Part shown: positions 9,039 to 9,221 of the stretch, piece after piece
Numbering within the stretch: the stretch's first letter is position 1
Layout: the number at the start of each line of letters is the position of its first letter
Origin: Candidatus Hermodarchaeota archaeon
GTDB taxonomy: Archaea; Asgardarchaeota; Lokiarchaeia; Sigyniarchaeales; SOKP01
Reading direction: 5' to 3'
Assembly (NCBI GenBank): GCA_048885925.1
Contig: JBHLLG010000030.1
Location: 1 to 32,917 of the forward strand
Length of the DNA stretch: 32,917 bases
The notes under the pieces: model-generated
The model's input: only the letters and a program-made list of their open reading frames with translations
The model's database searches: none
What the model was told of the DNA's origin: nothing
Position numbers and translations under genes: made by a program

Positions 9039-9221
9039 TATAACCACATAAACAAGCGTGACCGGGTATTTTCCTTGTAAGCCATGACCGTAAGCAAACT
9101 TACAGTTTATAGTTTCCCATAGATCGCAACTACAGTACTATCTACAACGCACACAAGTTTAACTTCCGGGTTCGGATGGTTCCAGCGCAGTAGCGAATTG
9201 CTACTAAATTATGTGGTTATA
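9039..9221. repeat. 13-bp perfect inverted repeat (9039-9051 / 9209-9221) enclosing the permuted 5S rRNA; predicted precursor processing stem
   Basis: TATAACCACATAA at 9039-9051 and its reverse complement TTATGTGGTTATA at 9209-9221. Confidence 0.9.
9060..9179 (-). rRNA. rrf: 5S rRNA, circularly permuted (canonical 3' part 9179-9099, UUUG linker 9098-9095, canonical 5' part 9094-9060)
   Basis: Minus strand: CCAUCCGAACCCGGAAGUUAAACUUGUGUGCGUUGUAGAUAGUACUGUAGUUGCGAUCUAUGGGAAACUAUAAACUGUAAG-UUUG-CUUACGGUCAUGGCUUACAAGGAAAAUACCCGGUC. It has the 5S hallmark CCGAACCCGGAAGUUAA, loop E AGUA/GAA and a GCGA loop D. Helices I, II, IV and V pair when checked by hand. Length is 120 nt. Confidence 0.9.

Follow-up and report, generated by a model that had tools for sequence, protein, structure and literature searches.

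The textbook 5S rRNA is a small linear RNA encoded by a collinear gene. Here we describe a 5S rRNA gene of circularly permuted order, whose RNA ends are joined, in a 32,917-nucleotide (nt) stretch of DNA from a Candidatus Hermodarchaeota archaeon (contig JBHLLG010000030.1 of assembly GCA_048885925.1; the whole stretch is called the window, and the gene lies on its minus strand). To our knowledge, the only permuted 5S rRNA otherwise known is that of stramenopile mitochondria. Permuted genes also occur among tRNAs, in Thermofilum as well as in Cyanidioschyzon merolae. These and other related systems are compared with the present locus below.

In the mitochondria of brown algae and other stramenopiles, the so-called mtPerm-5S has its domains permuted and its native ends joined by a loop, as in the archaeal gene; the final RNA is permuted, linear, unligated and organellar (PMC4267664), whereas here the ends are ligated and the gene belongs to an archaeal chromosome. 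The permuted tRNA genes of C. merolae encode the 3′ part first, carry a cut motif at the ends of the transcript and restore the order of the RNA by way of a circle (PMC4267664). All of this has its counterpart here, but in those tRNAs the product is linear, the linker that joins the native ends being removed, whereas the 5S locus has a conserved 4-nt loop at this place and no re-opening is seen in RNA contigs, which by their nature cannot show ends. Another example is the circular pre-rRNA pathway of archaeal 16S and 23S rRNAs, in which a long leader-trailer processing stem bears a cut motif and the excised rRNA is ligated (PMC10515664, PMC12918454). Here, in contrast, the substrate is a 5S rRNA, the gene itself is permuted and the motif is relaxed on one side; because of the permutation, ligation is needed to build a conserved loop, and not to join spacer ends as in the 16S/23S pathway. 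In a 2026 study, circularisation is stated for 16S and 23S rRNA “but not 5S rRNAs”, and archaeal 5S maturation is described as independent of the 16S/23S splicing-endonuclease pathway (PMC12918454). A ring made at a cut motif, and then kept or re-opened elsewhere, is also found in the permuted 23S rRNA of Pyrococcus and Thermococcus and in the circular 23S rRNA of archaeal ribosomes (PMC12918454); the genes are collinear there and the permutation arises at the RNA level, whereas here it is the gene that is permuted, and ring formation brings back the collinear order. Finally, low-level circular 5S reads have been obtained from Sulfolobus solfataricus and Halobacterium salinarum by RNase R-enriched sequencing, although this 5S ring was the only non-coding one that failed validation by reverse transcription PCR, and the authors suggest a possible degradation step (PMC3326292). 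Unlike the present case, those genes are not permuted, the rings were rare and no cut motif was reported for them. In the literature searched, which did not extend to subscription journals or to supplements, no permuted or cut-motif-processed archaeal 5S rRNA was found. The evidence given below supports a known kind of processing that here acts on a new substrate, encoded by a permuted gene; within one archaeal family it is widespread.

The permuted gene and its RNA

The assembly searched comprises 3.9 Mb in 181 contigs and is 95% complete. At gathering thresholds (38 bits for RF00001, the 5S rRNA family), Rfam gave no match in the window, and ARAGORN found no tRNA in it. At a relaxed threshold, RF00001 aligns globally (model positions 1-120 on 9209..9097, 28.7 bits, E 0.0012) with helices I and II mispaired, and this is the only RF00001 match across the whole assembly; the score stays below the cut-off because the order is permuted, not because 5S features have been lost. 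A covariance model in permuted order, R1, was built from an alignment (A2) of 55 non-identical core segments, the window's own included. R1 matches the window at 9060-9163 with 118.9 bits, its single match in the genome, a score that speaks for consistency and single copy and is not independent support, since the window's own sequence went into the model. When the ring is opened at the tetraloop of helix I, it matches a profile of the canonical 5S rRNAs of the sister family over positions 4-114 of 118 (53.1 bits), whereas in genomic order the window matches as two separate pieces. The same has been obtained for 58 of 58 intron-free related loci, which after opening reach a mean of 49.6 bits over 110.7 profile positions, against 24.8 bits over 67.2 in genomic order. 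The five helices are well kept in the alignment, with paired cells amounting to 99.6% in helix I, 91.1% in II, 100% in III, 100% in IV and 95.8% in V; 19 of their 30 pairs are changed on both sides (4 of 8 in helix I), and none of 500 shuffles reaches the covariation score. Helix I is closed by a loop of 4 nt in all 77 parsable loci (UUCG in 36, UUAG in 18, UUUG in 12). The 5S rRNA gene of the window is the only one in the genome, and it is circularly permuted.

The mature RNA, 120 nt in permuted order, is encoded at 9060..9179 on the minus strand, as located by R1, by the match of the opened circle to the profile and by the span of the RNA contigs. Read 5′ to 3′, it consists of the loop C motif, the 3′ strand of helix III, the 3′ strand of helix II, helices V and IV with loop E, and the 3′ strand of helix I; after the tetraloop UUUG follow the 5′ strand of helix I, loop A, the 5′ strand of helix II, loop B and the 5′ strand of helix III. 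Helix I and its tetraloop (9088..9105, minus strand) are made of CUGUAAG (9105-9099), UUUG (9098-9095) and CUUACGG (9094-9088), paired and covarying. The sequences flanking the mature RNA, likewise on the minus strand, can pair with each other: the leader strand GCG (9186..9188) with the trailer strand CGC (9056..9058) in an outer helix, and the leader CUGG (9182..9185) with CCGG (9065-9062) in a central helix of 4 bp including one G-U. Between the two trailer strands lies a 3-nt bulge, UCA (9059..9061), cut between 9060 and 9059, and next to the central helix the leader has the nucleotides AA (9180..9181), which are removed by a cut between 9180 and 9179. On recomputed positions this agrees exactly with the pairing given in a preliminary description of this DNA, made from the sequence alone, which had named the same outer helix, bulge and central helix with its one G-U. 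That description had also proposed a relaxed bulge-helix-loop form and a circle of 120 nt; there is indeed no pairing beyond the leader AAC (9181-9179), and 9179 to 9060 makes 120 nt.

RNA from the environment bears directly on these ends. A search of public sequencing runs with positions 8900-9400 listed 20 runs, 14 of which hold part of the stretch, 10 of these being recorded as RNA. Four metatranscriptomes from four studies (X1, X2, X4 and X11) were mapped, as assembled contigs, on 8980-9280. All 12 contig pieces, from 4/4 runs, fall inside 9060..9180, with zero depth on leader, trailer and processing stem. At 9060, three contigs (two from X1, one from X4) run on into letters that, when reverse-complemented, give the sequence from 9179 onwards; at 9179 (X1, X2, X11) or 9180 (X4), four contigs run on, for up to 35 letters, into the reverse complement of the 3′ end of the RNA. 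Two contigs (X2, X11) are exactly 150 nt long, that is 120 + 30, the length to which 31-letter words would assemble a cycle of 120 nt, and one contig of 130 nt covers all 120 nt with an overhang at either end. One X1 contig, which carries the junction, shows no difference from the window over 80 nt. Contigs also cross the tetraloop in all four runs, and both 150-nt contigs are unbroken all the way round. The RNA ends are thus shown to be joined exactly at the predicted junction.

Break points in relatives and the cut motif

The position of the cuts can be read from relatives of the same family (called f1; its sister family is f2). With a profile of the contiguous core, 84 f1 loci were gathered, and two of them at contig ends (L089 and L102) were dropped, which left 82 classified loci. 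The cut ends were placed by homology and not by searching for pairs: the ends of one type must rebuild the unbroken sequence of the other, and the placement that does so is unique. Type A, to which the window belongs, is broken in loop C (30/82 loci, genera g1, g14, g17 and g18), and type B after the 3′ strand of helix III (52/82 loci, ten genera); a third break point, in loop B, is present in one f3 locus. Type A loci encode the type B junction unbroken (for example ACCCGGAA-GUUAAAC in 27/30), and type B loci encode the type A junction unbroken (for example ACCCGGUC-CCAUCC). The ends placed in this way fall after nucleotide 2 of the 3-nt trailer bulge and, on the leader, two nucleotides past the 4-bp helix. 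The archaeal splicing endonuclease EndA cleaves after the second bulge nucleotide on each strand, and from this cut-after-nucleotide-2 rule one obtains, for each type, the junction that loci of the other type encode without interruption. All type B loci share the first G and the last AA of the retained sequence (52/52 each), whereas the discarded nucleotides vary: at the second leader position A occurs in 45 loci, C in 5 and U in 2, and at the third trailer position A occurs in 29, U in 12, G in 10 and C in one. The trailer nucleotide removed from the 30 type A loci, again the third of the bulge, is A, U or G. The cuts 9060/9059 and 9180/9179 had been proposed for the window in the preliminary description, and they match both the ends of the RNA contigs and the contiguous junctions of the relatives; the non-genomic junction that it had predicted is the one now seen in metatranscriptome contigs from four runs of four studies.

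The motif around these cuts is conserved as a structure. Its central helix has 4/4 pairs in 81/82 loci and its outer helix at least three contiguous pairs in 79/82. An alignment of 32 non-identical type B precursors (A1) was folded with RNAalifold, which predicts both helices of the motif and the 3-nt bulge between them, together with helices I, II, IV and V. The paired cells of A1 amount to 93.4%, compared with 31-45% when the strands are slid, and 24 of 36 pairs are changed on both sides; the covariation score is 0.537 as against 0.184 for shuffled alignments, and 0/500 shuffles reach the observed values. For example, the central-helix column pair 10/137 is C-G in 19 sequences and U-A in 13, with no mismatch, and the outer-helix columns 8/143, 7/144 and 6/145 show changes on both sides in 3, 3 and 6 of the 32 sequences. 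The native partner within helix III tracks the same trailer position as the second central nucleotide of the leader does; since leader and native partner both track the trailer, the leader, although discarded, is preserved as an imitation of one strand of helix III. Farther out, the processing stem formed by leader and trailer has a median of 13 contiguous pairs between own strands in 77 loci, versus 8 with trailers of other genera or with shuffled partners, and in L079, L060 and L042 the strands of this stem are of wholly different sequence and still complementary. Measured against the bulge-helix-bulge (BHB) motif, the window has the central helix of 4 bp and the 3-nt bulge between central and outer helix.

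Processing, alternative explanations and fate of the ring

The genome has one gene for EndA, with a product of 198 amino acids (aa) (PF01974, 101 bits; PF02778, 32 bits), and one for the ligase RtcB (PF01139, 569.6 bits). The nearest protein cluster of this EndA is labelled Promethearchaeota; this label and a Ras-family GTPase near the 5S gene are leads that make the Promethearchaeota (Asgard archaea) the probable phylum. Among solved structures, chains 3p1z_B and 3ajv_B are closest to the enzyme, both named in the search table only as “tRNA-splicing endonuclease”. We take these two chains to be the catalytic subunits in heterotetrameric enzymes of Crenarchaeota, a group of endonucleases that accepts relaxed motifs. 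From the gene content and the form of the motif, EndA and RtcB are the candidate acting enzymes. The following course of events may be proposed. Transcription would start from a TATA-like box upstream of the gene, and leader and trailer would zip into a processing stem of 13 bp, as covariation suggests. The leader CUGG would then displace the native partner of the trailer CCGG and so form the cut motif, a step that also has covariation on its side and does not correspond to the predicted ground state. EndA would cut at 9180/9179 and 9060/9059, positions to which RNA contigs and relatives both point, and RtcB would presumably join the two ends of the excised 120-mer at the junction seen in the contigs. 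Finally, native helix III and loop C would form, giving a covalently closed RNA of 120 nt with a normal 5S fold.

Several observations weigh against this course of events. The second bulge lacks a closing helix, and the motif therefore does not have the strict hBHBh′ form but a relaxed one (bulge-helix-loop). When the precursor of the window is folded as a single sequence, processing stem and leader hairpin both form, but native helix III wins with a probability of about 85%, the leader-trailer form being 1.4 kcal/mol less stable and its central and outer GCG/CGC pairs having probabilities of about 8% and 28%, respectively. Across loci, the median cost of forcing the motif is 1.8 kcal/mol in type A and 1.05 kcal/mol in type B, costs from which the motif would be an accessible alternative conformer and not the predicted ground state. 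The outer helix is weak in 3/82 loci (L095, L096 and L088). As to the RNA, the contigs are environmental and come mostly from close relatives (2-10 mismatches), a single one being identical to the window; neither abundance nor true ends nor the proportion of ring to linear molecules can be derived from assembled contigs; and DNA may be present in RNA libraries. These last features, and the fact that joints in metagenomes may stem from other organisms, are what could be invoked to regard the junction contigs as artefacts of template switching, of repeat assembly or of tandem 5S copies in DNA. Such an origin is very improbable, because the same junction appears at the same nucleotide in four runs of four studies, because it had been independently predicted from relatives and because a tandem arrangement occurs in none of the 84 genomic loci. 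Moreover, although the type A junction is present in the DNA of a type B relative, no contig assembled from such DNA could also run unbroken across the type B point, as the wrap-around contigs do, and neither genomic order, A or B, yields a contig contiguous across both break points. The junction-crossing contigs of the four runs also argue against a product that stays linear, permuted and unligated, with free ends in loop C. This fate has a natural precedent in brown-algal mitochondria, where the final 5S rRNA is permuted (PMC4267664), but here the discarded leader and trailer covary so that the cut motif is kept, the different break points of relatives would give differing mature ends, and the Rfam listing at the locus holds RF00001 alone and not the mtPerm-5S family; it would be very surprising if the ends were left unjoined. 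An ordinary, divergent and non-permuted 5S rRNA at 9209..9097 would be in keeping with the end-to-end RF00001 alignment mentioned above. However, that alignment is below the cut-off and mispairs helices I and II, the RNA contigs cover 9060-9096 and none of them extends over 9181-9209, and the permuted model reaches 118.9 bits; the Rfam placement was rejected on these grounds, and its chance of being right is close to nil. We regard it as very probable that the permuted 5S transcript is cut at a relaxed BHB motif, most likely by EndA, and ligated, most likely by RtcB, into a ring of 120 nt.

A different matter is what becomes of this ring, which might be only an intermediate that a nuclease opens in or beside the helix I tetraloop. 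Known circular pre-rRNAs are usually re-linearised (PMC10515664, PMC12918454), permuted tRNAs mature through a circle to a linear tRNA (PMC4267664), and the contigs described here are compatible with a linear majority. On the other hand, the linker between the native ends, always of exactly 4 nt and mostly UUCG, UUAG or UUUG, looks like a structural tetraloop and not like a removable spacer, contigs span this loop in all four runs and run unbroken all round at 150 nt, and a circular 23S rRNA inside ribosomes has precedent (PMC12918454). Re-opening is in our view unlikely, though with a chance that deserves to be taken seriously. A ring that persists as the end product is mildly favoured, because of the invariant, mostly UUCG-like loop (77/77) and the unbroken wrap-around contigs; the locus would then offer an example from nature of a 5S rRNA that is probably circular. 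Since the gene is permuted, EndA and RtcB would, if this is true, be indispensable for any functional large ribosomal subunit, and ribosome production would be tied to the enzymes of tRNA splicing. The most far-reaching form of the proposal, to which we give a chance barely above even, is that ribosomes throughout the family contain a 5S rRNA that is a covalently closed ring of 120 nt and is never re-opened, as would be the case, patchily, in five or more further families of the phylum; that no functional large ribosomal subunit can be made without EndA and RtcB; that evolution has shifted the break point two or more times (loop C, after helix III, loop B); and that mini-introns have invaded the gene.

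Distribution, mini-introns and surroundings of the gene

The permuted gene is widespread in f1. Among 40 relatives, only sub-threshold RF00001 matches were obtained in the genus of the window (20/23 genomes), and canonical ones, of 53-69 bits, in f2 (9/11). In 150 genomes of the order, RF00001 matches 83/130 f1 genomes, only two of them above the cut-off, and a canonical 5S rRNA is present in 12/14 genomes of f2. R1, in turn, finds a match in 112/125 f1 genomes from 12/13 genera (82-122 bits), which covers the full model length in 111/112 of them and model positions 3-104 in G044, where it lies at a contig end. R1 also matches families f3 (1/1), f4 (2/3) and f6 (1/3, from another order). In f2 it gave one marginal match among 13 genomes, of 33.5 bits in G034, which overlaps a canonical 5S rRNA and was taken as partial similarity. 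In the phylum beyond f1 and f2, full-length matches of 46-68 bits were found in 5/123 genomes of five families (f8 1/4, f9 1/2, f11 1/1, f13 1/5 and f24 1/6); the motif of these five loci is of textbook form, the central helix having 4 bp, the bulge 3 nt and the outer helix 10-15 bp, and the rings predicted from them measure 122-124 nt. At the two f4 loci, L134 (G026) and L135 (G028), R1 scores 46-52 bits and helix I is loop-closed; a convincing cut motif was sought there and could not be placed, and both loci were left out of the support for permuted processing. The two canonical 5S rRNAs above the cut-off in f1 are G075:C68 (L033, 80.8 bits) and G093:C263 (L036, 51.9 bits). Both have a bacterial-type GUGAAA after helix III and lie on contigs with 37% G+C, compared with 27-30% at the archaeal loci, and the permuted gene is also present in both genomes; the two contigs are probably contaminants. 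A whole archaeal family, together with scattered relatives in the phylum, encodes its 5S rRNA back-to-front, with cutting and ligation required for the conserved loop. The permuted order explains why standard annotation misses the 5S rRNA, for which no match above the RF00001 cut-off was obtained in 128/130 family genomes, and a covariance model able to detect such genes is now supplied.

Some related loci depart from the general picture. L020 (G030) has an apparently collinear and very divergent 5S-like sequence of 28.6 bits. In G114:C109, a partial second copy (L137:1007-1081) is located about 800 nt downstream of a full permuted 5S gene; it comprises only helix I to the 5′ part of helix III, its end resembles a type A trailer, and it may be a pseudogene or the remnant of a duplication. 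In a genome of the sister family, L004 (G031:C1:1399892-1400758) consists of three canonical 5S copies in tandem, spaced by about 375 nt. Tandem 5S genes such as these could yield a permuted gene through the loss of the outer halves.

Another feature of the family is the presence of short inserts in the same gene. Among the 82 classified loci, 21 have an insert of about 30 nt, and at least four insertion sites are represented. A strict BHB solution, with a 4-bp helix, two 3-nt bulges and an inner helix of 4-9 bp, exists for 13/21, and removal of these 13 restores a 5S rRNA of 120-121 nt identical to that of intron-free relatives. Such inserts lie, for example, in loop D (L013, L015, L028, L099, L061, L017 and L024), in loop C (L100 and L094, with L139, L140 and L137 as three extra cases read by eye), at another site of loop C (L098) and in helix IV (L075, L080 and L078). 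The strict scan gave no solution within its limits for 7/21 insert loci (L026, L073, L095, L096, L068, L076 and L081). In L066, it gave solutions only at other positions, with spliced lengths of 123 and 117 nt, which match none of the four insert positions and were rejected. Judged by their sequence, the inserts look like mini-introns in a 5S rRNA gene, of which we know of no earlier description. As further candidate substrates of the splicing endonuclease within this gene, they count in favour of the processing proposed above. Break points and mini-introns that move inside one small RNA offer a tractable model for the origin of permuted RNA genes.

The remaining elements of the locus are also on the minus strand. 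A TATA-like box (CTTATATAATGG, 9236..9247) is the putative archaeal promoter of the 5S precursor; related loci have CTTAT(T/G)AAATGG or CTTAAAAA motifs upstream, at a similar distance. The 5′ strand of the outer processing stem (TATAACCACATAA, 9209..9221) forms 13 contiguous pairs with its complementary 3′ strand (TTATGTGGTTATA, 9039..9051). Between this stem and the cut motif, the minimum-energy fold contains a leader hairpin, GTAGC-AATTC-GCTAC (9190..9204), which is kept in relatives with its stem changed on both sides (ATAGC/GCTAT in L021 and L022). A T-rich tract after the stem (9021..9037) is, from its composition, a possible transcription stop. About 20-45 nt past the 3′ stem strand (around 9020-8995 in the window, minus strand), most loci of the genus share a motif, TCTAAAATTAAGTTTT, which may serve in termination or as promoter of the gene that follows. 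The two open reading frames next to the 5S gene on either side (8407-8958 on the minus strand and 9376-9924 on the plus strand) are without a Pfam match. Farther away, the neighbours are a small EutQ-like cupin (8032-8322, plus strand), a Ras-family small GTPase (7216-7734, minus strand; PF00071, 143 bits) and a peptidase C25 protein of 725 aa (9943-12117, minus strand).

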